From Patescibacteria group bacterium (GTDB taxonomy: Bacteria; Patescibacteriota; Minisyncoccia; CAIUEV01; JAHKAQ01), in NCBI GenBank assembly GCA_034716235.1, contig JAYEHH010000019.1:16114-80113 (forward strand): a stretch of DNA of 64,000 nucleotides, given 5' to 3'. This document shows positions 5,806-60,124 of the stretch, one piece after another. The notes beneath the pieces were generated by a model. The model did not search any database. It saw nothing but the letters and a program-made list of their open reading frames with translations, and was not told the origin of the DNA. Within the stretch, counting starts at the first letter, position 1; each line of letters starts with the position of its first letter. The translations under genes were made by a program, and so were the position numbers.

Positions 5806-6054
5806 AAAAAGTTCCTTTCTTTATTCTGTAGACATATTCTTGCGTTGCGAGGCACAAGGGGAAGGATTAACCCGAGGAACATTCCAGCCGAAACCAGGGT
5901 GCCCTTATTTCTAGGTAAATTTTCTGGACCTAATAGCAAAAGCCCATACATCCACAGAATAAAAAGAGGAACTTAATAAATATATCAAAGTATTTTTAAG
6001 GAAAAATTACGTTAGTCTTAAACCAACAAAAAAGTCTAGCATATCCATTAAATA

Positions 6055-12986: not shown

Positions 12987-13024
12987 GAAAGACTTTTAAG
13001 AACATCGGGTTTAATAAGTTTTGT

Positions 13025-14449
13025 ATGAAAAATAAAAATATTAAAGAAGTTTTTAAAAAATTTGAAAATCCTATTATCGGAGCTTCTGTTCAAGCCTTTG
13101 GTAGAATAGGTTTAGAAAAAATCTTTCCTAATTTTAACATTGCCTGCTTAAATTATTCGAATGAATTAGAAAAAATGCGGAAAGATAATATTAATGTTTT
13201 TTGTCTTGAAGAATCTCTTGGCAAAAAATCTACAGACAAAAGAAATCCGACAACTGTTATTAAAAATAAGCTTTTCCAAACTTTTTTAAGAGAAAATTCA
13301 TCAAAAAAAGCTCCTATTTTTGTTTTATATAAAAGCAGTCAAGCAATTGAACACCTTGCTAAAAAATTTAATTGGATAATAGCTGCTAATAAATACAAAT
13401 CATATAAAAAGTTTGAGGATAAAGCACTTTTTAAAAATTTACTAAGAAAACTTAACATTAAAGAGATCCCTGGAGAAATAAATATCTTAGAGGATCTTCA
13501 TTATAAAAAGCTTGCCCTGAGATATCCCGAAGGATTTGTAATACAAGAACCAATGGCTGGTGGTGGAAGGGGAACCTTTTTCATCCACACCGAGAAAGAA
13601 TTTAATAATTGCCTCGATGAATTAAAAACTGATTTTGAATTAAAAGCATCTTCCAAGCTTGTTATTACTCAATTTATTAAGGGATATGCCCCTAGTGTTA
13701 CTGCTTGTGTTACTCAATATGGCATTCTTCAGCTACCACCCCAACTTCAACTCATAGATCTTGCAGAACTTCATTCTGACATTAAAGGCAATGGAGTTTT
13801 TTGTGGACACGATTGGTCAGCAGCTAAAGAAATTGAAGAGCGAGCTTCTCGAGAAATGAATCTAATTACTAAAAAAATAGGTGAATTTTTAAAGGGAGAA
13901 GGATTTAGGGGAATTTATGGAATAGATTTTCTGGTAAGTGATATTGATGGATCTGTTTTTCCCGTTGAATTAAACCCTCGTCTTTTGGGAACATTTCCAG
14001 TTTCCACATTAATTCAATTGAAAAACAAGGAGTTACCCCTGATTGCTTTTCATGTTTTGGAATTTGCAAAAGAAGAATATAAAATAGATATAAATCAATT
14101 AAATCAAAGCTTTTCAAAAAATAAGGAGGGAGCTCATTTTTTTATAACCACCCCCTATATTCCCTATAAAGTCAACGGAACATTGAAGGCTGGTGTTTAT
14201 AAAATCAAGGAAGGAAGATTAAAATTTTTAAGACCCGGTTACGAATTAACTGACCTTAAAAATAAACAAGAGTTTCTTTTAGTTGACGGCGTTCCTCACC
14301 AGCCTAGAATTGAAGAAAGTGGATTAAAAAGAATATTAAGAGTGGTTACTGATTGTCAAATTAGTCAGAACAAGGGAAGATCGCTAAATTCTTTTGGAAA
14401 AGAAATTACCAATGCTGTTTACAAAGCTCTTAAGGTGGAGCCACTATAA
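13025..14449 (+). CDS. Second ATP-grasp-fold enzyme (substrate unknown)
   Basis: 'GFVIQEPMAGGGRGTFF' glycine-rich loop and 'GIYGIDFLVSDIDGSVFPVELNPR' ATP-grasp C-domain. Confidence 0.5.
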   Translation: MKNKNIKEVFKKFENPIIGASVQAFGRIGLEKIFPNFNIACLNYSNELEKMRKDNINVFCLEESLGKKSTDKRNPTTVIKNKLFQTFLRENSSKKAPIFVLYKSSQAIEHLAKKFNWIIAANKYKSYKKFEDKALFKNLLRKLNIKEIPGEINILEDLHYKKLALRYPEGFVIQEPMAGGGRGTFFIHTEKEFNNCLDELKTDFELKASSKLVITQFIKGYAPSVTACVTQYGILQLPPQLQLIDLAELHSDIKGNGVFCGHDWSAAKEIEERASREMNLITKKIGEFLKGEGFRGIYGIDFLVSDIDGSVFPVELNPRLLGTFPVSTLIQLKNKELPLIAFHVLEFAKEEYKIDINQLNQSFSKNKEGAHFFITTPYIPYKVNGTLKAGVYKIKEGRLKFLRPGYELTDLKNKQEFLLVDGVPHQPRIEESGLKRILRVVTDCQISQNKGRSLNSFGKEITNAVYKALKVEPL

Positions 14450-18423: not shown

Positions 18424-18469
18424 GGGAACAGTATTTATATTAAATATATTTAATATAAATACTGTTCCC
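18424..18469. repeat. 46-bp perfect palindrome overlapping the dnaA stop codon
   Basis: GGGAACAGTATTTATATTAAATATATTTAATATAAATACTGTTCCC equals its own reverse complement. Confidence 0.9.
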
Positions 18470-19805
18470 TAATTGTTGAAATTTCCTGCTTTAAAGCAAG
18501 ATTATTTTTTATCTTGGACTTTACCTTATTATAAGCATGAATAATGGTTGCATGATCTCTACCCCCTAATTCTTTTCCTATACATGGGTAAGAAAGTTTT
18601 AATTCCTCCCTCATAAAATAAATTACTATCTGACGAGGCTTAATAATATTACTTTTTCTACTTTTACCCGTAATTTCACTGGGTTTTATATTATAAAAAG
18701 TAGCCACAGATTCAATTATCTTATTGGGTGTAGTGGTTTTTACAATTATTTTAGAAAAAGAATCTCCAAGAATTTCTTGAGCATTCTTTAAAGAAAAAGT
18801 AAGCTTTTTTAATTGACAAACGGCGATATATTTATTTAAAGCTCCTTCTAATTCTCTAATATTATCAGGGACATTGCGTGCAATGTATTCTAATACATTA
18901 CGGGGTATATTGTGGGAATCTAGGTTTTTTATTTTTTGCATTAAAATAGCAATTCTTGTCTCAATATCTGGTTTTGAAATGTCTACAATCATTCCACCCT
19001 CAAAACGTGAACGAAGCCTTTCTTCTAATGTTGCTATTGATTTTGGAGGGCGATCAGAACAAATAACAATCTGTTTGTCTTCCTGATAAAGAGTATTAAA
19101 TATATGAAAGAACTCTTCCTGTGTTTTCTCTTTCCCGCCGATAAATTGAATATCATCAATTAATAAAATGTCAATATTTTTATAATCATCTTTAAATTTA
19201 TCAACTCGTTGTCCTTTAATAGAATCAATAAATTCTGTAGTAAATTTTTCTGAAGTTACATAACGAACCTTCAATCCCCTTTTATTATCACTGGTATTAT
19301 TTCCAATAGCTTGTAAAAGATGAGTTTTACCAAGACCAACACCTCCGTAAATAAAAAGAGGATTGTATCTCTCTCCGGGACTTTCCGTGATTGATTCACA
19401 AGCAGCTTTAGCTAATTCATTATGAGATCCAGTTACCAGATTTTCAAAGGTATAGCGACCATTAAGGTTTTGCTTATTAATACCGGTGCTATTTGTGGTA
19501 GAGTTGTTTATCTTGGTGTTTTTAGGAACTGGAGTTAAGGATTGTAGGGAAGGTTTTTGAACGGGTGTTATTTGATACTCAATTGATTTAACATCCTTGT
19601 AATGATTAAGAATAGACTCCTTAATAAATTTACCATATTTATTTTCTAACCACTCCTTACTAAATCCATTTGGAACAGCTATTATTACCTCACCATTTTT
19701 AATACTAGAAATATAAGTATTATTAAACCAAGTAACAAAGTTACCCTTACTTATTGTTACCTCAATTTCACCTAGAACGGCTTGCCAAATGTATTTTTTA
19801 TCCAT
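18450..19805 (-). CDS. dnaA: Chromosomal replication initiator DnaA
   Basis: AAA+ 'GGVGLGKTHLLQAIGN' and a C-terminal DnaA-box-binding domain. Confidence 0.9.
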   Translation of the reverse strand: MDKKYIWQAVLGEIEVTISKGNFVTWFNNTYISSIKNGEVIIAVPNGFSKEWLENKYGKFIKESILNHYKDVKSIEYQITPVQKPSLQSLTPVPKNTKINNSTTNSTGINKQNLNGRYTFENLVTGSHNELAKAACESITESPGERYNPLFIYGGVGLGKTHLLQAIGNNTSDNKRGLKVRYVTSEKFTTEFIDSIKGQRVDKFKDDYKNIDILLIDDIQFIGGKEKTQEEFFHIFNTLYQEDKQIVICSDRPPKSIATLEERLRSRFEGGMIVDISKPDIETRIAILMQKIKNLDSHNIPRNVLEYIARNVPDNIRELEGALNKYIAVCQLKKLTFSLKNAQEILGDSFSKIIVKTTTPNKIIESVATFYNIKPSEITGKSRKSNIIKPRQIVIYFMREELKLSYPCIGKELGGRDHATIIHAYNKVKSKIKNNLALKQEISTIREQYLY

Positions 19806-23612: not shown

Positions 23613-25062
23613 ATTTTTCTTATTAGCCATTCTGTTGGCTGGTGGTGTAGGAGCAGGTATCGGTTTATATCCTGTTGAAACACTTATTCTAATTACACTT
23701 CTCTTAATTGGCTTATTAATCTTCTTTTTTCCAAGAACATCTTTAGTTTGGCTTGCTTTCCTTTTTCCATTCTTGCCCGCCTTAAATTTAGGCGCAGGTG
23801 TTGATTTGGCCAGTGGCCGAGTGTTGATCTTGCTTTTATTTTTCAGTTGGTTAGCACATTCCTTGGCGAACAAATGTTTTAAAGTCCCTCTTAAGATTAT
23901 GGGCTTATTGGTAATTTTGTTTTTAGTTTGGGTGGCAGGGTCTTATATTTATTCTCCAATCACCGAAAGAACTTTTCGTAAGTTATTGGTTTTTTATAGT
24001 ATTTTCCCTTTATTCTTTATTGGCTATGGGATGTTTATGGAATATGGAAAAAAGTTAGTCTTATCAGTTTTTAAGGCCGTTGCGGTAGGATCGATAGGAA
24101 TTATTTTAATAGGAATAATACAATTTCTATCCCAATTTTTTTGGGGAGGTCAAACTGTTGCCGGTATTTATTCTAATTATATAGCTCCTTTTCTTTGGGG
24201 GAAAACGGTAGCAGTAACGGTAGCCAGTAATCCTAGTTGGTTTTTTGATGCTGGTTCTATTGATTTATTAAGAGCTTTTGCAACCTTTCCCGATCCCCAC
24301 ATGCTGAGTTACTTTCTAGCTTTTGCCATACCTCTCTTAGTGGGGATCGGCCTTTTCCAGAAAAAGAAAAAGCTAAAGATTTTATACCTAACCTCAGCCT
24401 TTATGGGATTAGTGGTTGAGTTACTAACTTTTTCCAGAGGAGGATATTTAGGATTTTTCTCAGCTCTTACTTTTATTTTGACGATTTTATTCTTTAGCTC
24501 TTCAAATAAAAAATTATTAGTAGAAATTGTAGGAGGAATAGGCGCTGGACTATTAGTGTTAGGAATAATTTTTCCAGTTAATCCCATTTTTCAAAGAGTT
24601 GGTTCTATTTTTAATACTTACGAGGGTTCCAATCAAGGAAGATTGGAAATTTGGGGAGAAGCTTTTAATCTTTTCAAAGATAGGCCATTGTTGGGAGTAG
24701 GTCTGGGAGCCTATTCTTACGAAGTAAGGCCAGCTGCCAATTATCGAGATCCAATTTATGCTCATAATCTATATTTAGAATTTTTAGCAGAAATTGGAAT
24801 CCCAGGATTCATATTTTGGCTAGGAATCATTGTTTCAGCTATCTGGATTTTCACTAAAAACTATTTAAAAAACAAAAAAAGCGAAATGGGGATAATTTCT
24901 TTCGCTTTAGGATCTTCTTTGGTTTGGTTTTCTGTCCATTCTCTTTTTGAAATGCCGGTTTATTCTCCAATTATACTCCCCTTGCTTGTCCTTACACTAG
25001 CTTTAGCTAGTTATCTGGAGGATAATCTATCTGGTGGGTCGGCCACCTCTAGAAGCTTGTAG
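23584..25062 (+). CDS. O-antigen ligase/polymerase-like (Wzy_C) membrane protein
   Basis: Polytopic, with the 'YAHNLYLEFLAEIGIPGFIFW' Wzy_C motif. Confidence 0.6.
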   Translation: MLKISIFLNKFFLLAILLAGGVGAGIGLYPVETLILITLLLIGLLIFFFPRTSLVWLAFLFPFLPALNLGAGVDLASGRVLILLLFFSWLAHSLANKCFKVPLKIMGLLVILFLVWVAGSYIYSPITERTFRKLLVFYSIFPLFFIGYGMFMEYGKKLVLSVFKAVAVGSIGIILIGIIQFLSQFFWGGQTVAGIYSNYIAPFLWGKTVAVTVASNPSWFFDAGSIDLLRAFATFPDPHMLSYFLAFAIPLLVGIGLFQKKKKLKILYLTSAFMGLVVELLTFSRGGYLGFFSALTFILTILFFSSSNKKLLVEIVGGIGAGLLVLGIIFPVNPIFQRVGSIFNTYEGSNQGRLEIWGEAFNLFKDRPLLGVGLGAYSYEVRPAANYRDPIYAHNLYLEFLAEIGIPGFIFWLGIIVSAIWIFTKNYLKNKKSEMGIISFALGSSLVWFSVHSLFEMPVYSPIILPLLVLTLALASYLEDNLSGGSATSRSL

Positions 25063-26865
25063 CTCCTTTTTAGCTTTAGCAATTTCTATTAACTGGGCTG
25101 GATCAGACGTGATGATTTGGTCTTCCGTATAAGAAGCAACCACTCTTATGGCAGCGTGTTTTAATCCAGCAAAGAAAATTCCTTCTCCTACCTTACTTTC
25201 TAGAAGCATAAATTTTTCCTGTTCAGTTAAATAAAACGTTTCACTTATCAGGTCTATAGATGCCGGAGATTGTCTTAATAAAAGCTGGATGGATGAGTTA
25301 GTAATAATAGGCTTGCCGTAGGGGGAGTTTATAAAATCTGAAATATCTTGAGTAATAGTGGTTAAACCAGTGAAATATTTACGGCAACGCTTGGCAATGC
25401 GAAACATAAAATTGCCAGCATCTTCATGGGCCATCATTATCCATGCCTCATCAACAAACAAGAGGCGCTTTCTAAGATTGGAACGAATTTGATTCCAAAC
25501 ATATTGCAAAACTAGATACATAGCCACCGGTCTTAGGATTTCTTCCATGTCGCGAATATTAAAAACTATCAATTGAGTATCCACTCTTACATTAGTAGTT
25601 TTATTTAGAAAGCCTGCAAAGGTTCCTTCAGTGTATTTTTCAAGACGAATAGCTAAGTCTTCTCCTCCGCTCATATTCCTTAAAACATCATATAAAAGAG
25701 ACATGGTGGGAGGATTTTGAGAAGTCGTTTTAAAATTAGGAGAATCAGCGGTAATATCTTTTACGGCATAAGTTTCTCTAATGGCTCTATCTAGAATGGA
25801 ATCTTCTTCGGGGGTAATATTCCCCATAACAATCCTCATAAGCCCCAGAATATTTACAATTCCACTTCTTAAAATTTCTTCAGGGTCATCGTCGTCTTGC
25901 ATTAAGGGTAAATCAAAGGGGTTAATATGATTAGGAGAAGTTAAAGATATTTTTACAAATGAGCCTCCAACCGCATTACAGAGATGCTTGTATTCATTTT
26001 CTGGGTCTATAATAATTACCTGAGTTCCAAACATTAAAGAGCGTAAAATTTCTAACTTAGCGGTGTATGATTTCCCAGCACCTGATTTAGCAAAAACTAC
26101 CATATTGGCATTTTCCATCTTAAAACGATCAAAAAGAACCAAGCTGTTATTGTGACGGTTTATTCCGTATAAAATACCATCATTAGAGCTTAAATTTGAA
26201 GAAGTAAACGGAAAAGAGGTTGACAGCGGAGAGGTGTTTAGGTTTGTTGAAGCATCTAACTCATCATTGGCTAGAGGTACAGTAGAAGCAAAACCTTGTT
26301 CCATTCTAAATACTGCCGGTTTTAAATAAACTAAGCGAGCCTCTAAAATAGATTCAATAGAATTACAAAGATCATTTAATTCTTTTTCTGTTTTTCCATA
26401 GGCTGTAATATAAACTCCAAAGCGAAAGAAGCGTTCTACTCCTTGTTGAAGTCTGTCGCGTAAATCCTCAATATCCCGTAAAGAAGTTTCCAGAACAGGG
26501 TCTCTAATTTTTCCGGCTTGGGTTTCCAATGTCATTCTGGATTGTACCTGAGTAGCTGTTTTTCGAAGAGACTTTAAAATTACCCCAGTATCAACAGGAT
26601 GAGTAAACATAGAAATGTCAAACATTCTATCCAGATTAATAATGGGAGAAAACCAGCCCGTTTGAAGGTAACGAGGATAAGCTATAATAAATAAAGTTTT
26701 AACAAATCTATTTCCCACTCTCAGCATAGATGGAGAAACATTAAAAGATGCTGGAGCAATTAGGTCCTTAATAGTGGCTAGTCCTTGCAAGTAAGTCTTT
26801 TCAGCACTTAACTGCCCAGGAGCTGTCTTTGCTTTAGGCTTGTTGAAAGAAAAAAGTTTATTCAT
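25027..26865 (-). CDS. VirB4/TrbE/CagE-family type IV secretion ATPase
   Basis: N-terminal 'GNRFVKTLFIIAYPRYLQTGWF', Walker A 'FAKSGAGKSYTAK', Walker B 'LLFVDEAW'. Confidence 0.7.
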   Translation of the reverse strand: MNKLFSFNKPKAKTAPGQLSAEKTYLQGLATIKDLIAPASFNVSPSMLRVGNRFVKTLFIIAYPRYLQTGWFSPIINLDRMFDISMFTHPVDTGVILKSLRKTATQVQSRMTLETQAGKIRDPVLETSLRDIEDLRDRLQQGVERFFRFGVYITAYGKTEKELNDLCNSIESILEARLVYLKPAVFRMEQGFASTVPLANDELDASTNLNTSPLSTSFPFTSSNLSSNDGILYGINRHNNSLVLFDRFKMENANMVVFAKSGAGKSYTAKLEILRSLMFGTQVIIIDPENEYKHLCNAVGGSFVKISLTSPNHINPFDLPLMQDDDDPEEILRSGIVNILGLMRIVMGNITPEEDSILDRAIRETYAVKDITADSPNFKTTSQNPPTMSLLYDVLRNMSGGEDLAIRLEKYTEGTFAGFLNKTTNVRVDTQLIVFNIRDMEEILRPVAMYLVLQYVWNQIRSNLRKRLLFVDEAWIMMAHEDAGNFMFRIAKRCRKYFTGLTTITQDISDFINSPYGKPIITNSSIQLLLRQSPASIDLISETFYLTEQEKFMLLESKVGEGIFFAGLKHAAIRVVASYTEDQIITSDPAQLIEIAKAKKELQASRGGRPTR

Positions 26866-26885
26866 AGAGAATTAAAAATAAATAC

Positions 26886-27596
26886 TTAAGCATACAGTGA
26901 AGTGTTTACAGCCATTCCTTCGATAGGAGCCAATTCTAATCTTTCAATAGGTCCAGGATTATAAGTAGAATAATATAACTCGATTAATTCTTGGGTGTTT
27001 AAAATAGCCAATCTCAAGCCTGTTCCCGTTAATCCATTTTGAACAAGGTCCACTCGTTGCCACAGTTGGTCTTTGTAAACCTCCAAGCTTGCTAATCCTT
27101 TCTTTTTAGTAGCTTTATTAGGAGAGAATATCTCAAAGAAACGGTCTTTTAGTTTACCTTTCTGGTTCTCAACGGGTGAGAAAGGAACAACAATGTAAAA
27201 ACTTTTATTTACAACATTAATAGTAACCGCCATGTTGGCAATATATTGAATATAATCTTCCATTTGCAAATGAAGTAGCTCGTTGGTTTGCTCTCGAGAT
27301 AATTTCTTTAGAGTATCAACATAATGCTTTAAGTTTATTTTACGAGAACTAATAAAAATCTGCAGAGGAAAATCTAAGGAGTTTAAAAAACTTTGATAGT
27401 GAGTAATAATAGCATCCTGTTCGTCGGTAGATTTGAGATCAAAATTTATAGAAGACACCATTAATACAGCCCTTAAGGCTCCATTTTTTAAAATTACCAC
27501 TCCATCTTTTATCTGATCAATATCTAAAAACTGCTGAGTACTACCGGTAGCTTGTTTTTGTTTAATTAATTTTTTTGCATGCAGAGATTGACTCAT
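26886..27596 (-). CDS. Hypothetical protein within the T4SS-like cluster
   Basis: Lies between the PrgI/VirB3-like and VirB4 genes on the same strand; no recognisable motif. Confidence 0.3.
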   Translation of the reverse strand: MSQSLHAKKLIKQKQATGSTQQFLDIDQIKDGVVILKNGALRAVLMVSSINFDLKSTDEQDAIITHYQSFLNSLDFPLQIFISSRKINLKHYVDTLKKLSREQTNELLHLQMEDYIQYIANMAVTINVVNKSFYIVVPFSPVENQKGKLKDRFFEIFSPNKATKKKGLASLEVYKDQLWQRVDLVQNGLTGTGLRLAILNTQELIELYYSTYNPGPIERLELAPIEGMAVNTSLYA

Positions 27597-27654
27597 TTAA
27601 ATATCTTTTGTATTTATTTTTAGGGATTGTAAATATGCCGACGAGATTCTTTTT

Positions 27655-28272
27655 CTAATTACTCTCTCGATCTTTCTCTCTTTTCAGTTGTTGGTTGCGT
27701 TCTTTATTTCTTAAGCGTGCTCCTTTTGTGTTAGCTGTCTCTTCTTTAATAACATTTTTTGATTGGACCATCAAATTTTTAGAAGAAGACTTTTTGTTTT
27801 GAGTGGCTGAATTAAAAAATTGTTGATCAGACATTTCTTGCTTACCATCAGCATCTAAAATATTGGCAATGTGTTCTACTTTTTGATGAGGAAACTCTTT
27901 TTTGGTAATAATAATTTCCATTTCTTCTTCCTTGTTTTTGTTTTTTGGATTGAATTGCTTTTTTCCTCTTTTCCAAATATAGCGTTTACCCTTGGTGCCA
28001 TAAATAAGAATATGTCCTAAAAAAGAAACCAGACTTTGATTATAAGGACGGAAAAAAGCAAAAGCAGAAACTATTCCCATTACAAGTATAGCTATAACAA
28101 TAAATAATGAAAGGTCAAAAATATGATACAGAATAAGGAGTGAAACACCCCCTCCTAAAAGCCATAAAAATTGCTTCCCAGTTAAGGGACCGACAATGGT
28201 ATCTTCTATATCTATATCTTTTGGAATCTTAGATCTCATGGGTTGATTAATTAAATAATATAATTCCTTCAT
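27655..28272 (-). CDS. PrgI/VirB3-like two-TM membrane protein
   Basis: Two adjacent TM helices near the N-terminus followed by a charged tail, positioned upstream of VirB4. Confidence 0.35.
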   Translation of the reverse strand: MKELYYLINQPMRSKIPKDIDIEDTIVGPLTGKQFLWLLGGGVSLLILYHIFDLSLFIVIAILVMGIVSAFAFFRPYNQSLVSFLGHILIYGTKGKRYIWKRGKKQFNPKNKNKEEEMEIIITKKEFPHQKVEHIANILDADGKQEMSDQQFFNSATQNKKSSSKNLMVQSKNVIKEETANTKGARLRNKERNQQLKREKDRESN

Positions 28273-29710
28273 TTTTAGTGATAGCGAGAGGAGTGTCTTT
28301 GTCGTGAGAGGTAATGATAGTTTCTAATCGATGGCGTTCTTCTGTACTTAGATTCCTAGCATTAATTGACTTAAATAGAAACTCTTGTCGCTCATCCTCG
28401 GTATTTCCAGTTGCTCCAAATTGACTGCGGTAATCAAAAAGCCAGTTTTGAACAGTAGGAGAAACCTTTGTATCTCGTCCTAAAAGTGAAATTGGAGCTG
28501 AAGTTATGGGTTGATCAGCAACACGAGGATTAGTTTGAAGTGCTTGTTTGATTGTTTTTTGAATTGTTGAGCCATCTGATGGTTTTTTTAAAGGAACGGG
28601 TTGTAATCGTTTAGGAAAATTAACGCCTTGAGCTTCTGGTTTTGGAAGTGAAGAAGTTGACGGAACCGATGAGGTTGTTTGAGCTGATGCTGGCATCTGT
28701 CTTAACGGTTGTTGAGTGGGAGCCGGTGGTTGTTGAAATTTCTGTTGTTGCAGGACAGCTGACTGACTAACTGACTGGGCTGTTACTGGTTTAGAAGCTG
28801 TTGGCTGGAATGTTTGTTGAGGTATTTGCTGCGGAGTGGCTTGTTGATTAACTGATTTGGATGTAGCTTGCTGGGACAATGTTTGTTGAGATGGTTGCTG
28901 ACGAGGTGGTGTAGTTTTCTGCTGAGTTGCGGCTTGTTGCCGAGGTGTTTGTTGAAATTGTTGCTGAGTTGCGACTTGTTGGCTAGATGCTTGTTGTTGA
29001 GGTAAAACGTTTTGTTGTGAAATACTCCCTGTTTGTTTAGCGGTTTTTGTTTCTTGAGCAACAACTTTGGCTAATTGTTTTTCTTGTTTATCTATTTTTT
29101 CTACCTCATCCATAATTTGTTTTATAGAAAATATTTTAGTTGATTCAAAAAGCAAAAGCAGTTCTTCTAAGATTTTTTTATCTGGCAAAGAAAGAGACTG
29201 GGCATTGATTGAATCGGTCATATATTTTCTAACGGCCATTTCGTTTTGTTTGTCCATGCCATATATCTGAACATAGTCTTTAAGCCAGTTGCCAATGGTT
29301 GGTCTAGCTTTAGGATTATCTCCTATGGAAATAGATTGAGACCCCAATAGCTCTTCATTCTTAAGCATAGCATTAAGTATCCGAGGGACCGATTCATTCC
29401 ACATAATAGTGGGTGAGGCAAGATATTTTATCCGAAAAGCTTTTTTAAGACTAAATCCTTTACTATGAATTGGAATAAGAATGTTTTTAGTTAAAAGTTC
29501 TAGCTGATCTTTTTCAATTAAGGCAGGGAAAGCTACCCACTGCATTCTAATTTTTAACTCTTTGAGCCATTTTTCACTGAGACCTTCAGTTCCGGATTTA
29601 CTGCTAAGTTTATTTAAAACATCAAGAGCAATTTCTGTTTCTTGATTTTCCCAAGCTATTAAACTAGAGTCTAATAATTTTTTTGTTTCGGGACTAAGAT
29701 TGTTAGGCAT
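28247..29710 (-). CDS. Q/P/T-rich low-complexity protein with duplicated terminal ~50-aa domains
   Basis: 'TIGNWLKDYVQIYGMDKQNEMAVRKYMTDSINAQSLS' near the N-terminus resembles 'TVQNWLFDYRSQFGATGNTEDERQEFLFKSINARNLS' near the C-terminus. The central region is Gln/Pro/Thr repeats. Confidence 0.3.
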   Translation of the reverse strand: MPNNLSPETKKLLDSSLIAWENQETEIALDVLNKLSSKSGTEGLSEKWLKELKIRMQWVAFPALIEKDQLELLTKNILIPIHSKGFSLKKAFRIKYLASPTIMWNESVPRILNAMLKNEELLGSQSISIGDNPKARPTIGNWLKDYVQIYGMDKQNEMAVRKYMTDSINAQSLSLPDKKILEELLLLFESTKIFSIKQIMDEVEKIDKQEKQLAKVVAQETKTAKQTGSISQQNVLPQQQASSQQVATQQQFQQTPRQQAATQQKTTPPRQQPSQQTLSQQATSKSVNQQATPQQIPQQTFQPTASKPVTAQSVSQSAVLQQQKFQQPPAPTQQPLRQMPASAQTTSSVPSTSSLPKPEAQGVNFPKRLQPVPLKKPSDGSTIQKTIKQALQTNPRVADQPITSAPISLLGRDTKVSPTVQNWLFDYRSQFGATGNTEDERQEFLFKSINARNLSTEERHRLETIITSHDKDTPLAITKNEGIILFN

Positions 29711-29742
29711 AATTAATATATTCTTGTTTATAAATGAGTAAA

Positions 29743-32331
29743 TTAAACATTGTCTTCGTCTCCCATCATTCCAACCATACCTTCTGCCTGTCGCGCTGAG
29801 ACATTTATCACTTCGTTAATTTTACGTTTTTCTTCCGTGCTAAGTTGGTTAGTAACTTCAGTGTTTTTAACAAGCTTTTTAAGCTCTTTGATATCTTTGG
29901 ATGGAATAACCTTAAACCTTTGTTGAGTTTCTACAAAATTGTTATCCATATTTTTGATGGTTACATGAGCTGTATCAGCAAGTTTTTTTGTGCCGTCAGG
30001 TAAGGTTTTAACAATTAAATTGGCTTTAAAAGTCCTGGCGTAGTTTCTAGAACTTAAATTAGAGAGCATCTCATCAATGTTGTGGACTCTTTCTTCACTG
30101 GTTGCTGAACGCATTTGTTTAGTTTTAGAATCCATTATTGTTGTTCCGGCTTCGTTATAATGTTTATTTTCTCTGGCTATATTGTCTAAATCAACCCTAA
30201 GAAGATCTCCTGGTCTTTTACTGTTACCTTTAAATTTTTCGTCAATAAAATCATTTAAAGTAGCGTTGGAATCTATAAAACCTGCACCTTGTAATTCATT
30301 CGTTATGTTCATTCCCTTTTTTGCCATTAAACGCAACCCAGCTTCTATGTCTGCAGGGCTTGTACCGTTTCCAACTCTTGTGATCAACTGACTTGGAGTT
30401 TTTGTTTCTTGTGTCATTCGCTCAGTAGCCGTAGCCACTTTTTGTTGATGTACTCTGTCGTCATGGAAAAAGGATCGATATTTTTCACCATAGACTTCTC
30501 TTTTAGCTGCTTTTCTATATTCAGCATCAAAATTTTCAGCAAGATTGTTTGTAGTCCATTCAGTTTCTAGGGTGCCCCTCTGTTCCTGTAGTTTTTGTCT
30601 ACGATTAGCTATTTCATTTTTTCGATCTGCTATTTCAGCCATCCTTTCTTCTGAGAACGGAGTCCCTCGTCTTTGGTTTTCTTCATCAATAAGAGATTGG
30701 TTTTCTGCTCCTAGCTCTGTATCTTCTTCGTCAATATCATTTTTTCCTTTTTCATTTTTTGCTCTAGCGGCTGCTCTTTTTTTGTCTTCTGCGTCACCAG
30801 CTATTTGTGTTTTCGGTGTCATACCTATTAATCTACGTGACTGATTAGTCATAGCTAGCCAAGTAAGGCTTCCAAGTTGACTCAAAGATTCAGTGTCTTC
30901 TTTCCCTTGAGCATCCATTGTTTTCTTGTAAGCGCCATAAAGACCACGACCAAGAGTTACAGGCTCAAGCATAGCCATTGTTTTAGCAGCCCCACTAGCT
31001 CCAACAAGCCCCTTGCCCATTCCGGGGGCCATTTTTCTAGCTCTAGCTTTTGTTCTTTCCCATAAACCTGCATTATCTCTCAATGCTTCTGGTGGTGTTA
31101 CCTGCTTTAATCGTTCGCCAGCTCCTTTAAGAATAGTTTTAGTTCCATGAAGCCCTATTTTATGAAGTGCCATTGATCCACCAACTACCGCAATCTGAGC
31201 CATTCTAGTTACTTTGCTTGCTCCAGCAATGCTTAGTGAAGCGGCGGCAATAATAGAGCCCCATAATAAAATAGATGAAAACATTAAATACATATAGATA
31301 TTGTGGCTAGCGACAATAGGCTCCACATACTTTTTATCACCAAGTGTTTTACCATTACCTAAGTCCATATCTGTTAAATCATTTTTGGGATTGCTAACAA
31401 CTAATTCCCCGCTTATTAAATTCATCGTATTGGCAGAGAACCAAAGAAAAAAGAAAAGGATTGGTCCTGCCATAGCATACTTCAAAAAACTGCCCCACCA
31501 TTTCTTAGCCGTTCCCTCAGTATCGGGTAAAACTAATCCAATATAAGCAATAGGTGACAAAACCAATAATACCCAAAGAGCTACCGTTCTAATAATTAAA
31601 AATATACCTACGCTTAAAACAACAATAGCGGTCATAGCTATAAAAATAAGTGGTGCTACGGCTCCTGCCGTAATAGCTGCAATAGTTGCCAAATCTGGAG
31701 CATCAAGGATATGCTTAATAGTGTCCCATCTTCTCATAGAAGGACCCCATAAAAGACCTTTTATTGCTTTTTCAACTTCTTCTAAAGGATGTCCAAAAAT
31801 CCCATTAAACATTAAAACATGAAAGAAGTCTAAAATCAGTCCGGCAAAAACTAAACTAAAATTGGTAAGTAAGGCAACCACAACTAATTTTACAAGCAGT
31901 TTCTTGTAATTATATTTTTCAATTCTAAATAAGGTTCCTACTCCAATGAAAAGTAAAACTATAATGTAGAACATATTGCAAATGGAAGCGACCACCTTCC
32001 ATCCATTACGTACCATTGGATTTATAGCAAAACCTTTTAAGATGTCTCGATAATATATTGGGTCAAATAAGTCATGAACCAATTTAACAACTAATTCAAA
32101 AATCATCCAAACAAAAAGTTCTATTGCCCAGGCCCCAATTGCTATAATAAGGGCAGGGATTTTTATTAACAGATTAGCAAGTTCATCAAGAGCCCCTCCG
32201 GATAAAAGTTTTCTTACTGCTTCCATGAATGTTATTGCTTGAACTGTTTCTGTGGACATAATAAAAAAGAACAAAGAAACGGACATTACAAGCCCAGTAG
32301 ATAATAAAATTCGTTTTAAATTAAACTTCAT
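29743..32331 (-). CDS. VirB6/ConG-like large polytopic membrane protein
   Basis: About 400 N-terminal residues carry 10 or more TM helices, followed by a ~450-aa charged/coiled C-terminal half. It lies in an operon-like arrangement with VirB4. Confidence 0.45.
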   Translation of the reverse strand: MKFNLKRILLSTGLVMSVSLFFFIMSTETVQAITFMEAVRKLLSGGALDELANLLIKIPALIIAIGAWAIELFVWMIFELVVKLVHDLFDPIYYRDILKGFAINPMVRNGWKVVASICNMFYIIVLLFIGVGTLFRIEKYNYKKLLVKLVVVALLTNFSLVFAGLILDFFHVLMFNGIFGHPLEEVEKAIKGLLWGPSMRRWDTIKHILDAPDLATIAAITAGAVAPLIFIAMTAIVVLSVGIFLIIRTVALWVLLVLSPIAYIGLVLPDTEGTAKKWWGSFLKYAMAGPILFFFLWFSANTMNLISGELVVSNPKNDLTDMDLGNGKTLGDKKYVEPIVASHNIYMYLMFSSILLWGSIIAAASLSIAGASKVTRMAQIAVVGGSMALHKIGLHGTKTILKGAGERLKQVTPPEALRDNAGLWERTKARARKMAPGMGKGLVGASGAAKTMAMLEPVTLGRGLYGAYKKTMDAQGKEDTESLSQLGSLTWLAMTNQSRRLIGMTPKTQIAGDAEDKKRAAARAKNEKGKNDIDEEDTELGAENQSLIDEENQRRGTPFSEERMAEIADRKNEIANRRQKLQEQRGTLETEWTTNNLAENFDAEYRKAAKREVYGEKYRSFFHDDRVHQQKVATATERMTQETKTPSQLITRVGNGTSPADIEAGLRLMAKKGMNITNELQGAGFIDSNATLNDFIDEKFKGNSKRPGDLLRVDLDNIARENKHYNEAGTTIMDSKTKQMRSATSEERVHNIDEMLSNLSSRNYARTFKANLIVKTLPDGTKKLADTAHVTIKNMDNNFVETQQRFKVIPSKDIKELKKLVKNTEVTNQLSTEEKRKINEVINVSARQAEGMVGMMGDEDNV

Positions 32332-32434
32332 TTTTATATTTTGCTATTAGCTTGATCTATAAATATTATAAAGCAAAAATCCTTTTTTGGAAAACTTGAT
32401 ATCTTATTGCTCTTTATTTTTACTTAAATGCTTT

Positions 32435-33859
32435 TTAGGGGGTAGAATTATTAACCTTATTCCAAATTGTTCCGTTGCTTGATTTTGCTTTATAAATAAC
32501 CCAACCAGCTCCATCATAGCCTGCATACCACATTAAAAATGGAGGACCGGATTCTCCACAAAGACCAAGAAAAGTATCGGAGATAACTGTAGGACCAGCT
32601 ATATGAATATTGTCTCCTTTATCACCAGGTCCTAGATTAAGCACCGGATTTTTTTCTTTCTGCCAATGAATACCGTCCATTGAAGTGGCATGAAAAATTC
32701 TCCAACCAATTGGTTCGCAAGAACTATTATCAGGATCACCTCCATAGCCAGCATACCACATATGATATGTTCTGGATTCTTCAACACAAGTTAATCCACA
32801 ACAAGCTGGTGTATATTTTTTTTCTAGCACAACGGTTGGTTCAGAAACATGTATATTATCACAATCACCTTCATCTCCTACATCAAGGACAACTCCATGT
32901 TTTTGCCAGGGGACTTCACCATCCATTGAAGTGGCATAAAAAATACGCCAAGTACTTCCATCATAACCGCTATACCACATATGATACATTCTATTACCCT
33001 CGCAACAACAAGGTGGTTCGGGAGGGCAAGAACAACAATATTTATTTATGTCTAAAACCACTGTAGGGTTATGAACATGAATGTTTGCTTTACTATTGGG
33101 ATTTGTATTAATTACTGCTTGATCTGAATATTTATTCCAAGTTAATCCATTGCTTATTGAAAAAACATTGAAAATACGCCAAGTTGAATTTTCTTCGTCG
33201 TAGCCACCATACCAGGCGTGATAATCTGCTTTTCCATACATAGCTCCAGGGACTTCTCCAATACATTCCACTACTCTTTCTTGTAAAACTGTAGGATTGG
33301 CTACATGAACATTGTCCCGACTTCCTTTAGGTGAAAGCGGAATCCTTCCATCTGTCCCGTATTCACCACCACCTCCACCTTTACCATAGATACTTCCTAT
33401 TCCTTCAGGAGGAACCTTATTGTTTTTCTTTCGCCAAGCATTACTGTCTGTTGAGTTGGCATGGTAAACTCTCCAAGCACTTCCTTCATAGCCAGCATAC
33501 CACATACGGTAGCGGTCATTGGGATTATGAATTTCCTTGATAACTGAAGGACCGGCCACATAAATATTATCTCCTATTTTATCAGTATCAGTGCCTAGAA
33601 AAATCCTACCACCCGAACAAGTATGATTCGATCTAGTCATATAAGACGTATAGTTATAACTAGGATTACTATTGCTAGGTGTTGTGCTGGTAATGTTATT
33701 AGGCTTAACACCTTTCAATGTCCCGGAACAACCAGCTATGAAAAATATACTAACAACTAAAATACTAAAACTTATTAGCGGAATCTTTTTTCTATTTGTC
33801 TGCCAATTTTGACTTTTTGTCAGTAGGAATGACTGCAGTATTTTTTTTAATTTTTTCAT
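32435..33859 (-). CDS. Lipoprotein with a five-fold beta-propeller repeat (GH43/GH32-like fold) and cysteine-rich inserts
   Basis: Lipobox 'FFIAGCSG'. Five repeats of 'DN(I/V)H(V)..PTV(V/L)...Y(H)MWYAGYDGS.WRIF(H/Y)A.S.DG..W'. Cys clusters 'CCSCPPEPPCCCEG' and 'ACCGLTCVEE'. Confidence 0.5.
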   Translation of the reverse strand: MKKLKKILQSFLLTKSQNWQTNRKKIPLISFSILVVSIFFIAGCSGTLKGVKPNNITSTTPSNSNPSYNYTSYMTRSNHTCSGGRIFLGTDTDKIGDNIYVAGPSVIKEIHNPNDRYRMWYAGYEGSAWRVYHANSTDSNAWRKKNNKVPPEGIGSIYGKGGGGGEYGTDGRIPLSPKGSRDNVHVANPTVLQERVVECIGEVPGAMYGKADYHAWYGGYDEENSTWRIFNVFSISNGLTWNKYSDQAVINTNPNSKANIHVHNPTVVLDINKYCCSCPPEPPCCCEGNRMYHMWYSGYDGSTWRIFYATSMDGEVPWQKHGVVLDVGDEGDCDNIHVSEPTVVLEKKYTPACCGLTCVEESRTYHMWYAGYGGDPDNSSCEPIGWRIFHATSMDGIHWQKEKNPVLNLGPGDKGDNIHIAGPTVISDTFLGLCGESGPPFLMWYAGYDGAGWVIYKAKSSNGTIWNKVNNSTP

Positions 33860-33923
33860 AGCTTTGTTTTTATTTAAGTTAAAGAAAAAAATATAAAATT
33901 TGGAAAACCAAAAAATAGAAACT

Positions 33924-34349
33924 TTAAGCTTCCGCCCCCGCCTCTACCTCATCTGCTCTTTTTTTGGCAGTATGCCAAGCCCAAAGCACCATCAAGGTTG
34001 TTATCGGAGTAACCATATCAACGAAGGGTATTAAACCAAATAAAGAATCAAGAGCAACAATGGCTGCTACCTGAATCACTACCTTAACCAATTGTCTTTT
34101 CCATCCTAGTTGGGTGATTATAAGATAGGCGACAATTCCTTTTGGTAGAATGGCTATTAAAAAGTCCAAAAAAGGAACGGGAATCATATCGCAACCATCA
34201 GCCACAAGAGCTAAGGGAAGCGCTAACATAAAAATAAATGAGTTATATTCGCCTCCTTCTATCTTCCTGGTTGCCTCACCTGCTTTTTTCTTTAAAGAAT
34301 TTTTAGAGAAATTTTTGGTACCTTGGGTTATTTTTTGAGCTAAAGACAT
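33924..34349 (-). CDS. Small polytopic membrane protein (possible VirB2/pilin-like T4SS component)
   Basis: 141 aa with three hydrophobic helices, at the head of the minus-strand T4SS-like cluster. Confidence 0.25.
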   Translation of the reverse strand: MSLAQKITQGTKNFSKNSLKKKAGEATRKIEGGEYNSFIFMLALPLALVADGCDMIPVPFLDFLIAILPKGIVAYLIITQLGWKRQLVKVVIQVAAIVALDSLFGLIPFVDMVTPITTLMVLWAWHTAKKRADEVEAGAEA

Positions 34350-34432
34350 TTTATTTTTAACGCTTATTTTTTGCTTTTTCTATTATAAGACAAATGAGTT
34401 GTTTTTCCAATGTTTTCGAGCTTCTTAATTCT

Positions 34433-41187: not shown

Positions 41188-42723
41188 ATGTTTTCTCAGG
41201 TAAAATCTTTTGTCTTGGATGGTCTTGACTGCAAAGAAGTAGAAATAGAGACAGATAGGTCGGGGGGATTACACAACTTTACCTTAGTAGGCCTCCCAGA
41301 TACAGCCATTAGAGAATCTAGAGACAGGGTAGGGGCAGCAATAAAAAATAGTGGCTTTAAGCCCCCTTATCATTTTGGAAGGATTACTGTTTCTTTGGCT
41401 CCTTCTTATTTAAAGAAAACAGGGTGTGGTTTAGATCTTGCGATTGCAATTTCTATTTTAGAAGCCACTAACCAAATTTCTCCCTTGAAAGAAAAGGTTG
41501 CGTATTTAGGAGAGCTATCATTGGATGGCGAGCTAAGAGAAACACAGGGAATTTTGTCAATTGTTATAGCCTCTCGACAGGCTGGGTATAAAAAATTTTT
41601 TATACCAACCGCAAATGCTAAGGAGGCGAATTTAATAGATGGCATAGAAATTATTCCATTAAGGTCCTTGGGAGAGTATATTTCTTACTTAAAAGGAGAG
41701 CTTAACTTAAAAACCAATGCTTTTAAATTGGATTTGCCCACTCTTCAAAAAGAAAAAGAATCTTTTGAGATAGATATCGCTGATATAAAAGGTCAAGAAA
41801 AAGCCAAAAGAGCATTATTAATTATAGCTGCTGGAGGCCATAATCTACTTTTTTCTGGTTCTCCCGGAACTGGCAAAACATTTTTAGCGAGAGCGCTTCC
41901 CTCAATATTGCCCAGCCCATCACTAGAAGAACAACTAGAGGCGACTAAAATATATTCCGTTGCTGGATTGCTTCCCATGGATATTCCCTTAATTATGACA
42001 AGACCATTTAGATCTCCTCATCATACCGCATCAGATGTTGCTTTAGTTGGTGGAGGGTCAAAAATAAATCCTGGAGAAATTACTCTAGCTCACAGAGGAG
42101 TACTTTTTCTAGATGAAATTCTTGAATTTTCAAAAAAGACATTAGATAGCTTAAGGCAGCCACTGGAAGATGGAACAATTAATATTTCTAGAGCTTCCGG
42201 TTCAGTTACTTTTCCAGCTAAGTTTATTTTAGTAGGGGCAATGAATCCTTGCCCCTGTGGCTACTTAAATGATCCAGATAGAGCATGCACCTGTACCCCG
42301 TCTGCCATTAATAGATACAGACAGCGATTGTCCGGACCAATAATTGATAGAATTGATCTTTTTGTTGAAATTAGGAGGGTAAAATACAAAAAAATAAAAG
42401 AAGGTTTAGTCGGCCAAACATCTAAAGAGGCTAGAGGATTAGTAGAAGTTGCCAGAAAAATTCAACTTAAAAGATTTAAAGGAAAAAATATTTTAACCAA
42501 TTCAGAAATGAGCTCTAAGGATGTTGAGAAATATTGTTCTTTAGATTCTCAAGGCGAGTCTTTTATTAAGAAAGCCACAGAAACTTATTGTTTTTCTACG
42601 AGATCCTATTATCGCATATTAAAAATCGCTAGAACCATAGCGGATCTAGCGATTAAAGATAAAATTCAGAGCGAGCACATTGCTGAAGCTCTACAGTATC
42701 AATTAAAAGAAGTAGGAAGTTAA
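41188..42723 (+). CDS. comM: YifB/ComM Mg-chelatase-like AAA+ ATPase
   Basis: N-terminal Lon-protease-like domain 'GLDCKEVEIETDRSGGLHNFTLVGL', Walker A 'GSPGTGKT', and a C-terminal Mg_chelatase_C helix. Confidence 0.8.
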   Translation: MFSQVKSFVLDGLDCKEVEIETDRSGGLHNFTLVGLPDTAIRESRDRVGAAIKNSGFKPPYHFGRITVSLAPSYLKKTGCGLDLAIAISILEATNQISPLKEKVAYLGELSLDGELRETQGILSIVIASRQAGYKKFFIPTANAKEANLIDGIEIIPLRSLGEYISYLKGELNLKTNAFKLDLPTLQKEKESFEIDIADIKGQEKAKRALLIIAAGGHNLLFSGSPGTGKTFLARALPSILPSPSLEEQLEATKIYSVAGLLPMDIPLIMTRPFRSPHHTASDVALVGGGSKINPGEITLAHRGVLFLDEILEFSKKTLDSLRQPLEDGTINISRASGSVTFPAKFILVGAMNPCPCGYLNDPDRACTCTPSAINRYRQRLSGPIIDRIDLFVEIRRVKYKKIKEGLVGQTSKEARGLVEVARKIQLKRFKGKNILTNSEMSSKDVEKYCSLDSQGESFIKKATETYCFSTRSYYRILKIARTIADLAIKDKIQSEHIAEALQYQLKEVGS

Positions 42724-43916
42724 TAAATGTAACCCTTAATTACAGAACTGCTAGCGCTGAGAGTTCTTTGGCTTACTTTACCCCAACCTCTGTAATTCAT
42801 TTCTGAAACTGTTATTTTGCCACCTTTTACTTTCTCTACAACAGCTACGTGACCATAACGACTTTCTCTGGTTACAACAATTGATCCAACTTTAGGAGAT
42901 TTTCCGGTTTTTGCTCCATAGGCTTTAGCATGATAAAGCCATGTTCCCGCATTTCCTCCCCAAGGAACATGTTTTCTTGAGGCAACGTACCAAGTACACC
43001 AACCATAAGGAAAGCGATGAGCTGGATATTTATATCTTTTTTTTGATAGGGTTTCGCTAGCTTGGGTAGAAACAGTGTTTTGAGCTGTCCCTGTGGTACT
43101 AGCATATGTAGTAGCTTGACTATCCGTGTAACGAGGCTTACTTTCTTGCTTTCCATCAGGGATAACAATTTCGTCTCCAATGTTTAAATCTCCATCGGCG
43201 GGAACATCATTAAAGGTTATGATTTTTTTCTCGCTTGTTTTGTATAATTTAGCCAGAGATTTTACCGTATCATGTTTTTTTACTTTGTGCTTTATTCCTG
43301 TTATTGGAAGGATAAAGATCTCATCTCCTGGTTTTATAATAGAGCTTTCTGTTAAATCATTTGCCCAAAGAATAGTATTAACGGTAATGGAATATTTTTG
43401 GGCAATAGAGCCGGCAGTATCTCCATCTTGAACTTTATAGACAAAAACATCTTGACCGGAAACATTAAACTCGTCAGGAGTTGGGTTAGTTACTGGTGCT
43501 AAAGCACTAACCACCGTATTTTTTTCACCTTCTTCTTTAAGATATTGTTCATATTCTGCTAGTTCGTAAGCATCAGCAATAGGAGCCAAAGCTAAAGAGT
43601 TGGATTTCTCTATTTTATTATATATGGGAGTTAAGGTGTTATCTTCTGCAAGAAATGAATTATTACCTAAAACATTTCTATTCTGTGATTTTATATTTAC
43701 GAAAGAAACAAAAATAGCACAGGCTAGAATTCCTGCTCGAGCGGCATTTTTTTTAATAAAGCCAACCAAAATAGAAAATCTCCCTTTTCTTAAAAAAGTT
43801 ACTAATTTCCGCTGATAACGATTTAGACGACCACAAAGCTCTTTACCTTTAGCTATCAGAGGAGAATATTTAGAAGGAAAGTGTTTAGTCTTCTGCTCCC
43901 TCTTTAAACGATTCAA
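42720..43916 (-). CDS. LysM-LysM-CHAP peptidoglycan hydrolase
   Basis: Two LysM repeats ('YKVQDGDTAGSIAQKY', 'HKVKKHDTVKSLAKLY') and a C-terminal CHAP domain 'GWCTWYVA...GHVAVVEKV'. Confidence 0.75.
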   Translation of the reverse strand: MNRLKREQKTKHFPSKYSPLIAKGKELCGRLNRYQRKLVTFLRKGRFSILVGFIKKNAARAGILACAIFVSFVNIKSQNRNVLGNNSFLAEDNTLTPIYNKIEKSNSLALAPIADAYELAEYEQYLKEEGEKNTVVSALAPVTNPTPDEFNVSGQDVFVYKVQDGDTAGSIAQKYSITVNTILWANDLTESSIIKPGDEIFILPITGIKHKVKKHDTVKSLAKLYKTSEKKIITFNDVPADGDLNIGDEIVIPDGKQESKPRYTDSQATTYASTTGTAQNTVSTQASETLSKKRYKYPAHRFPYGWCTWYVASRKHVPWGGNAGTWLYHAKAYGAKTGKSPKVGSIVVTRESRYGHVAVVEKVKGGKITVSEMNYRGWGKVSQRTLSASSSVIKGYIY

Positions 43917-60110: not shown

Positions 60111-60124
60111 TTAATTCAAGCACT

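Follow-up and report, generated by a model that had tools for sequence, protein, structure and literature searches.

A probable vertically inherited type IV secretion system near dnaA in a Candidatus Moraniibacteriota bacterium

A seven-gene cluster within a 64,000-nt stretch of contig JAYEHH010000019.1 (the window; all coordinates refer to this whole stretch) very probably encodes a vertically inherited, chromosomal type IV secretion system (T4SS) of a Candidatus Moraniibacteriota bacterium, represented by a Patescibacteria metagenome-assembled genome (MAG). The cluster encodes a VirB4-family ATPase, an adjacent PrgI/VirB3-like protein and a polytopic VirB6-like protein of borderline score, and probably belongs to the Patescibacteria branch of the monoderm mating-pair-formation class FATA (MPF-FATA). 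The system is favoured as an apparatus for translocation at the host interface that operates independently of a relaxase and of a type IV coupling protein (T4CP). The seven co-directional open reading frames (ORFs; 25027-34349, minus strand) encode, from the 5' end, proteins of 141, 474, 862, 487, 205, 236 and 612 amino acids (aa). All are intact and all lie exactly where an original prediction, made from the sequence alone, had placed them. Intergenic gaps within the cluster span 20-103 nt, and the end of the gene for the 487-aa glutamine- and proline-rich (Q/P-rich) protein, QP487, overlaps the start of the PrgI gene by 26 nt. The cluster was compared with a synteny set of 83 related loci, drawn from separate genomes that each represent a species; scanning a single genome for every species gave 80 loci, mostly titled Candidatus Moraniibacteriota. 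The encoded proteins, listed from the motor to the 5' end of the cluster, are as follows:

25027-26865, minus strand: VirB4 ATPase, 612 aa, without the extreme N-terminal domain; predicted motor of the system (NCBIfam, Pfam and PDB matches)
26886-27596, minus strand: TrsD-like protein, 236 aa, the VirB4 N-terminal domain as a separate gene (NCBIfam matches and Pfam matches of homologues)
27655-28272, minus strand: PrgI/VirB3-like protein, 205 aa, with two transmembrane segments and an extended charged C-terminal tail (PF12666)
28247-29710, minus strand: QP487, soluble Q/P-rich protein, 487 aa, a conserved T4SS-associated component
29743-32331, minus strand: extended VirB6/TrbL-like polytopic membrane protein, 862 aa, with a hydrophilic C-terminal tail of ~460 aa (TrbL_4, position and topology)
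32435-33859, minus strand: predicted surface lipoprotein, 474 aa, a five-bladed beta-propeller resembling the glycoside hydrolase (GH) 32/43/117/130 superfamily (lipobox, repeats and weak family matches)
33924-34349, minus strand: small membrane protein, 141 aa, a conserved T4SS-associated component relocated in the clade of the window (iterative search with a hidden Markov model, HMM)

The VirB4 motor and its partners

The 612-aa protein scores 367 bits against the NCBIfam model of the CD1110-family VirB4 (cutoff 325, E 2e-109, model positions 174-728 of 752), above its scores against the TraC, VirB4_CagE and TrbE models, and matches the Pfam families P-loop_TraG, AAA_10 and DUF87. Its best match in the PDB is the C-terminal ATPase domain of Thermoanaerobacter VirB4 (4AG5, E 5e-47), followed by TrwK of R388 (E 2e-7). 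Both Walker motifs claimed by the original prediction can be read in the translation, as AKSGAGKS (Walker A) and LLFVDE (Walker B). The protein has more than 8000 homologues, the best 120 of which are 65-100% identical and about 605 aa long; those among these 120 with a named source all derive from Moranbacteria, Parcubacteria or Patescibacteria MAGs. The best plasmid-borne match, from a member of the Bacillota (Pontibacillus), is 35% identical and is itself annotated as CD1110 family.

The 236-aa product of the gene preceding virB4, formerly listed as unknown, is a homologue of TrsD and of the VirB4 N-terminal domain. It matches the NCBIfam models VirB4_plasma (positions 92-233, E 3e-8), TrsD/TraD (E 2e-7) and CD1110 (positions 3-119, E 4e-6), all three below their curated cutoffs, and its homologues in two related loci (L001 and L002) carry the TraC-like family PF26593; a sequence search of the PDB gave nothing significant. 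Because this gene matches N-terminal positions of VirB4, the motor is split over two genes, one for a TrsD-like N-domain and one for the 612-aa ATPase.

Two membrane proteins accompany the motor. The 205-aa protein matches Pfam PrgI (PF12666) at 39 bits (cutoff 27, E 1e-9) and has two transmembrane segments within residues 36-74, in agreement with its earlier description as a PrgI/VirB3-like protein with two transmembrane helices; a PDB sequence search returned nothing significant. The 862-aa protein scores 27.0 bits against Pfam TrbL_4, exactly at the cutoff of 27 (E 4e-6), and E 0.0025 against TrbL/VirB6, while its homologue in locus L002 carries TrbL_3. Its N-terminus is signal-peptide-like, and its hydrophobic blocks (residues 7-28, 50-86, 111-138, 144-179, 214-270, 282-300 and 347-370) fit roughly 9-10 transmembrane helices rather than the more than 10 first counted; the VirB6-like character and the charged tail of that first description hold, with 32% of the ~460 tail residues charged. 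A PDB sequence search with the whole protein gave nothing significant, the tail being without similarity to any solved protein. The VirB6 identity, borderline by score, is supported by conserved position and predicted topology.

Other parts expected near a T4SS lie outside the cluster or were not found. The seven genes include no cell-wall hydrolase, and the orthologue family of the following gene usually adjoins virB6 in related loci:

42720-43916, minus strand: LysM and CHAP peptidoglycan hydrolase, 398 aa, a candidate VirB1-like cell-wall opener (Pfam LysM E 4e-20, CHAP E 1e-18)

This protein also matches PcsB-like CHAP. Its gene lies on the same strand as the cluster, about 10 kb upstream of virB6. 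In 20 of the 24 loci that have both genes, 77-230 bp separate the orthologue from virB6, likewise on the upstream side. The hydrolase is a candidate for a VirB1-like role, and a general role in cell division is equally possible. For a VirB2-like pilin, an HMM built from 64 pilins matched no window ORF at E<=1, and a tblastn search of the window with pilins gave chance-level matches (best E 0.21). Genes for VirB2-like pilins of family PF18895 come after virB4 in loci L001, L006 and L007 and were not found in L004, L005 or the 64-kb window. Pfam and NCBIfam searches of all cluster genes gave no match to a VirB8-like bitopic protein; QP487, the one unassigned gene product with a structure prediction, lacks a transmembrane segment and matches no solved structure.

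Chromosomal setting, conservation and accessory proteins

The window covers the origin-proximal dnaA-dnaN-rnpA-yidC region of the chromosome. The gene order runs from dnaN and dnaA (17.1-19.8 kb, with dnaA at 18450-19805) through rnpA, yidC and three polysaccharide genes to the cluster, and continues with ksgA, tRNA-Gly and cca, then further on with gyrB and a partial dnaG at the right window end; holA and rpsT were seen beyond the left end, on short Logan contigs, which added no further gene at the right end. These genes include the housekeeping flanks noted in the original prediction (polysaccharide genes, ksgA, tRNA-Gly and cca) and extend them by dnaA, dnaN, rnpA, yidC, gyrB and dnaG. The distance from dnaA to virB4 is 5.2 kb, 83 nt separate ksgA from the 5'-most gene of the cluster, and tRNA-Gly lies 1 kb from the cluster. 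A scan of the window for DnaA boxes marking oriC gave counts not above chance. Intergenic promoter-like sites are confined to the regions 5' of the first gene and 5' of virB6:

34382-34410, minus strand: promoter-like site between ksgA and the 141-aa gene, TTGGAA-17-TATAAT, a consensus match only (10 of 12 positions)
32365-32393, minus strand: promoter-like site between the lipoprotein gene and virB6, TTTCCA-17-TATAAT, likewise a consensus match only (10 of 12 positions)

Promoter and terminator scans gave site counts not above shuffled controls.

Signs of mobility were sought by Pfam scans of every other window ORF of >=100 aa together with the partial dnaG at the right end. Among these ORFs, no match to a relaxase, T4CP, integrase or VirB11 was found in the 64 kb, as the original prediction had held for VirD4, relaxase, VirB11 and recombinase. 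No att-like direct repeats were found around the cluster or the tRNA-Gly gene, and the GC content of the cluster (0.34-0.38) is like that of the rest of the window. The sole T2SSE-type ATPase in the window is PilB and not a VirB11, scoring 891 bits against TIGR02538 and 103 bits against the VirB11 model (cutoff 250). This PilB-type pilus ATPase (2773-5805, plus strand, 1010 aa) has two T2SSE ATPase stretches in tandem and stands alone beside ruvB.

The synteny comparison that the original prediction had proposed revealed the same module and gene order across the 83 related loci. TrsD is encoded directly upstream of virB4 in 82 of them and PrgI is present in 73; VirB6 homologues occur at the same position in 46, and the Q/P-rich protein, found in 56, is always encoded between virB6 and prgI. 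Global identities to the counterparts in L005, L006 and L001, respectively, amount to 87, 80 and 77% for VirB4 and 83, 68 and 67% for TrsD, compared with 76, 56 and 59% for DnaA, 66, 43 and 53% for DnaN and, for L005 and L006 (L001 gave no value), 81 and 52% for YidC. The corresponding values are 56, 33 and 32% for PrgI, 48, 33 and 34% for the Q/P-rich protein and 42, 30 and 29% for VirB6. VirB4 is thus among the most constrained proteins of the neighbourhood, above DnaA, DnaN and YidC, while the membrane and envelope parts evolve fast.

Two proteins without annotated relatives recur with the motor. QP487 comprises a helical N-domain (residues 1-225), a disordered linker rich in Q, P, T and S (about 225-378) and a C-domain (379-487), and lacks a transmembrane segment or signal peptide. 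Its description as Q/P-rich is borne out by the linker, which contains 26% Q and 12% P. An identical protein is recorded at NCBI as U9Q72_01805 of a Patescibacteria group bacterium. Each domain contains one copy of a ~57-aa unit that bears the motif PT.xNWLxDY (internal repeat E 8e-10). In an AlphaFold2 (AF2) model built from a seven-sequence alignment, both domains reach a predicted local distance difference test score (pLDDT) of about 90 and the linker stays below 50. A Pfam scan of 78 family members (46 and 32) gave no family match, a sequence search of the PDB gave no match, and Foldseek with the AF2 model gave none below E 0.2. The family is nevertheless large, with 1755 clusters at E<=1e-3, of which 903 reach E<=1e-10, in a library of 1.84 billion representatives, the matches falling nearly all on the C-domain.

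The 141-aa protein begins with a charged stretch, after which come two hydrophobic hairpins whose turns carry D-x-IP motifs; the three transmembrane segments of the original prediction correspond to three strong hydrophobic segments, to which a fourth, weaker one must be added. An iterative HMM search found the family in 71 of the 83 loci, exactly one copy per locus, and in 68 of these 71 its start immediately follows the stop of virB4. In the window and in L001, L006 and L007 it instead stands at the 5' end of the cluster, adjoining the propeller lipoprotein gene. Pfam and NCBIfam searches gave the family no match, and hhalign comparison with the VirB2-like pilin, PrgI and VirB6 families gave probabilities below 10%. 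Identification as a VirB2-like pilin or as VirB3 was rejected (hhalign probabilities 0.6% and 9.8%, no Pfam match). In two loci (L051 11785-14928 and L071 11786-14647) the ORF next to virB4 on its downstream side is ~950-1050 aa long and begins with the family domain; these long ORFs may have arisen by fusion to a large extracellular protein, or ORF calling may have produced them artificially.

The third accessory protein, the 474-aa lipoprotein, has the lipobox IAGC with its Cys at residue 44 and five repeats of the motif WY[AGS]GY...WRI...S.DG..W, also seen as a five-copy DNA repeat, as expected from its earlier description as a beta-propeller lipoprotein. Its family matches are weak but mutually consistent, comprising GH130 (E 5e-5), GH32N and beta-1,2-mannobiose phosphorylase (E 7e-6), and a profile search of the PDB returned GH117 at 1.8e-4 as well as GH130 and GH32; a single-sequence AF2 model had a pLDDT of 34 and was not used. 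Among the 83 loci, orthologues were found only in L001, L006 and L007, that of L001 with an added Laminin_G_3 (concanavalin A-like lectin) domain. The lipoprotein is a clade-specific accessory, glycosidase-like by sequence. It contains 15 cysteines, with clusters at residues 275-286 and 353-358 (e.g. CCSCPPEPPCCC and CC...C), and four cysteine positions are invariant in an alignment of the four orthologues (C215, C225, C294 and C298, alignment numbering), which suggests disulfide or metal sites unusual for a propeller fold. The accessory components had been regarded as unusual, but two of them, the 141-aa and Q/P-rich proteins, are conserved members of the module in Moraniibacteriota, not oddities of one locus.

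Related loci also vary in layout. In many Moraniibacteriota (the 'type B' loci of the L016-L057 group, e.g. L036 and L057) the module is split, with pilin arrays, PrgI, TrsD, VirB4 and the 141-aa family gene at a first site and a pair of LysM-CHAP and VirB6 genes at a second, ~10 kb downstream and past the Mg-chelatase-like and ksgA genes. Locus L002 contains inserted small genes of the Bro-N and GIY-YIG kinds at 5075-5837, immediately upstream of virB6, which may represent a homing-endonuclease-type insertion in the T4SS neighbourhood.

Competing explanations, predicted function and significance

Two alternatives concern the identity of the cluster. That the 612-aa ATPase is an FtsK/HerA-type DNA translocase with unrelated neighbours and no secretion system can practically be dismissed: the Pfam match to DUF87, the HerA central domain (E 2e-9), stands against a score of 15 bits for the HerA NCBIfam model (cutoff 970) next to 367 for the VirB4 model, against the match to the VirB4 structure 4AG5 and against the sharing of one site by virB4 with the genes for TrsD, PrgI and VirB6 across the related loci. 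The NCBIfam scores and the 4AG5 match already refute an FtsK/HerA identity, the grouping that the original prediction had named as fatal to it. The cluster could otherwise belong to an integrated conjugative element, intact or in decay, as its mating-pair-formation module, with the relaxase, coupling protein and integrase outside the window. VirB4 proteins of the CD1110 family are characteristic of conjugative elements in Bacillota, the distance to a tRNA-Gly gene is 1 kb and the source contig (84,339 bp) extends beyond the window, but this explanation is very improbable given core housekeeping genes on both sides, synteny kept with relatives that are 77-90% identical in VirB4, seven intact ORFs, a VirB4 more conserved than DnaA, and the absence of a repeat at the tRNA end or of a GC deviation. 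Among 3,035 genomes of Patescibacteria, moreover, just 103 were reported to have relaxases (Quinonero-Coronel et al. 2025, PMC12102498). A decaying mobile element fits poorly because the motor is strongly conserved while the membrane and envelope parts evolve fast. An ordinary conjugative element, with relaxase, T4CP, integrase and att sites beside the cluster, had also been named as an outcome that would overturn the original prediction, and none of these genes or any att-like repeat was found within the 64 kb. The housekeeping flanks, uniform GC content and synteny across the 83 loci agree with the original proposal of a chromosomal, non-conjugative T4SS-like apparatus.

A further alternative concerns function: the system may take up DNA, nucleotides or other host material, in the manner of ComB of Helicobacter pylori or archaeal Ced, and so feed a bacterium unable to make nucleotides. 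Such a role was proposed in a PNAS perspective (PMC11665869), and both the lack of a relaxase or T4CP in the window and a weak match to CedB (42 bits) would accord with it. However, this CedB score is far under the cutoff of 700 (CedD reaches 27 bits), the best family is the conjugative CD1110 type and partners specific to ComB or Ced are absent; Southlakia can do without ComEC competence but needs its T4SS, a contrast that leaves import neither proven nor excluded (PMC12857230), and the direction of transport is not readable from sequence. Import is thus rather unlikely as the specific role and is best treated as a functional sub-hypothesis, compatible with the structural T4SS assignment.

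The preferred explanation, a vertically inherited T4SS of the Patescibacteria branch, has several points to contend with. The VirB6 assignment combines a score exactly at the Pfam cutoff with a conserved position, and no VirB8-like component was identified among the cluster genes. The placement of VirB4 in its clade rests on closest matches and identities, not on a tree. The scans cover 64 kb, and the remainder of the genome may carry a T4CP, relaxase or pilin gene; VirD4 (T4CP) homologues are reported in most Patescibacteria genomes, mostly far from virB4 (PMC12102498). The essentiality data come from another class, Saccharimonadia, and there is no Parcubacteria-group T4SS with demonstrated function.

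On established T4SS biology, PrgI and TrsD would dock VirB4 hexamers on the membrane beside VirB6, and ATP hydrolysis would power both assembly and the passage of a macromolecular substrate across the single membrane, while the LysM-CHAP hydrolase may open the wall and make room in the peptidoglycan. The literature on related systems suggests that such a machine serves a host-dependent lifestyle rather than the mobilisation of DNA by conjugation, and could act in export of proteins, as a contact structure towards the host cell or in import of host material. A more specific proposal is that the 141-aa protein and the protein with two NWLxDY units are obligatory, Parcubacteria-specific T4SS subunits that replace VirB8 or coupling-protein roles (e.g. 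a cytoplasmic adaptor between substrate and VirB4 with a long flexible linker), and that in this clade the pilin gene beside the cluster disappeared and a glycosidase-like lipoprotein was acquired for the surface, suggesting pilus-independent engagement of the host envelope. We regard this proposal as tentative and, taken as a whole, open to considerable doubt.

A relaxase-less, dnaA-proximal T4SS of Patescibacteria has already been described (Wang et al. 2023, PMC10633639; Quinonero-Coronel et al. 2025), and the locus leaves the existing picture unchanged, adding a Moraniibacteriota example and a parts list from the 83-locus comparison. New here are the recognition of the 141-aa and Q/P-rich proteins as conserved parts of the Moraniibacteriota module, the clade-specific, putatively glycosidase-like lipoprotein and the missing adjacent pilin. 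The parts list holds two conserved unannotated components, one of them a domain family of at least 903 clusters with no Pfam, PDB or fold match; a motor above DnaA in conservation; fast-evolving membrane and surface parts; and variable pilin and glycosidase-like genes. The Patescibacteria T4SS is the first T4SS reported to be essential for the survival of its own carrier bacterium, and because it is essential while its substrate is unknown, it poses a key open question in ultra-small host-dependent bacteria. The items on this parts list offer usable structural and genetic targets once Parcubacteria-group organisms become manipulable.

Other genes in the window and comparison with known systems

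Several genes outside the cluster are of separate interest. A 549-aa protein (60017-61666, plus strand) fuses a complete LexA, with DNA-binding domain and S24 self-cleaving peptidase, to a C5 cytosine DNA methyltransferase (TIGR00498 157 bits, cutoff 111; C5 methyltransferase 339 bits). A convergent gene encodes a Bsp6I-family restriction endonuclease (61670-62233, minus strand), and the pair, also present on Logan contig L085, looks like a restriction-modification system with a methylase that bears an SOS-repressor module. Three consecutive genes (10892-14449, plus strand) encode a membrane protein with 7TM_transglut, a protein that joins a sugar-transfer-associated ATP-grasp to a Zn_protease-like domain, and another ATP-grasp protein; together they may form a peptide- or amino-acid-ligase module. 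The window also encodes a 694-aa protein with two lamin-tail (LTD) domains (8119-10203, plus strand) and a Thy1 (ThyX)-domain protein of 461 aa, compared with 191 positions in the domain model (55270-56655, minus strand).

The closest known counterparts of the cluster are the T4SSs of the Patescibacteria clade. VirB4 was reported in 2,417 of 3,035 Patescibacteria genomes, most of the proteins forming one clade nested in MPF-FATA; TrsD is the partner detected most often near virB4, followed by PrgI/VirB3 and VirB6, with VirB8 rarely detectable and VirB2-like pilin genes near virB4 frequent but not universal (PMC12102498). The same study finds virB4-associated VirB1 homologues mainly in Paceibacteria and places the system of Paceibacteria and Microgenomatia near dnaA, dnaN, rnpA, ksgA and rpmH. 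In Southlakia epibionticum, the T4SS genes SEML1_0006-0019 are essential for epibiotic growth (PMC10633639), and recognisable coupling and relaxase proteins are lacking there, according to both that paper and a 2025 review (PMC12857230). This review and the 2024 perspective cited above describe the function as 'completely unknown', listing effector delivery, a pilus conduit and uptake of host molecules as options (PMC12857230, PMC11665869). The window cluster resembles these systems, that of Southlakia included, in a VirB4 with adjacent TrsD, PrgI/VirB3 and VirB6 (PMC12102498, PMC10633639), in a monoderm type without VirB7, VirB9 and VirB10, in the absence of a relaxase or T4CP from the cluster, in strong conservation within the phylum and in a site beside dnaA, dnaN, rnpA and ksgA that follows the Paceibacteria pattern (PMC12102498). 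It differs from Southlakia, where a six-gene pilin array is essential and a peptidase and lysozyme lie directly downstream of virB4 (PMC10633639), in having no pilin gene in the 64-kb window and a LysM-CHAP gene ~10 kb away. It further adds the GH-like propeller lipoprotein, the 141-aa protein and the protein with NWLxDY units, which are not among the components named in the cited parts of the two studies (PMC12102498, PMC10633639).

More distant comparisons concern single features. Like the extended VirB6 proteins of, for example, Rickettsiales (PMC12857230), the 862-aa protein combines a polytopic N-terminal region of at least five helices with a large C-proximal hydrophilic domain, but only this general architecture is shared, its tail resembling no solved protein in sequence. 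The Trs subclass of MPF-FATA on pGO1 and pSK41 (TrsC, TrsD and TrsE) likewise has a separate TrsD gene before VirB4 and a VirB3-like gene upstream. These systems are, by contrast, plasmid-borne and conjugative, with a relaxase and a T4CP, TrsK. The pGO1 subclass also has no recognisable VirB6 profile match (PMC12102498), whereas the window locus encodes a VirB6/TrbL-like protein.

Outside the candidate phyla radiation, the best VirB4 match (35% identity, 621 aa, N-terminally short) is encoded on an 898-kb replicon of Pontibacillus sp. ALD_SL1 (NZ_CP062975.1), in a relaxase-less cluster (346325-368088, locus L087) on a replicon typed as non-mobilizable. No relaxase or T4CP is annotated within 10 kb of this cluster, in which TrsD-like (E 5e-32) and PrgI-like (E 6e-9) genes precede VirB4 and a peptidoglycan hydrolase follows it, the upstream part containing two PF18895 pilins and a large membrane protein. 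It differs in having no homologue of the 141-aa or NWLxDY-unit proteins, in a VirB6 missed by the VirB6 HMM used here and in its location on a large secondary replicon, where genes for flagella and chemotaxis surround it, rather than in the chromosomal origin region. This Pontibacillus cluster has PF18895 pilins as well as a split VirB4, which shows that neither feature is restricted to Patescibacteria.

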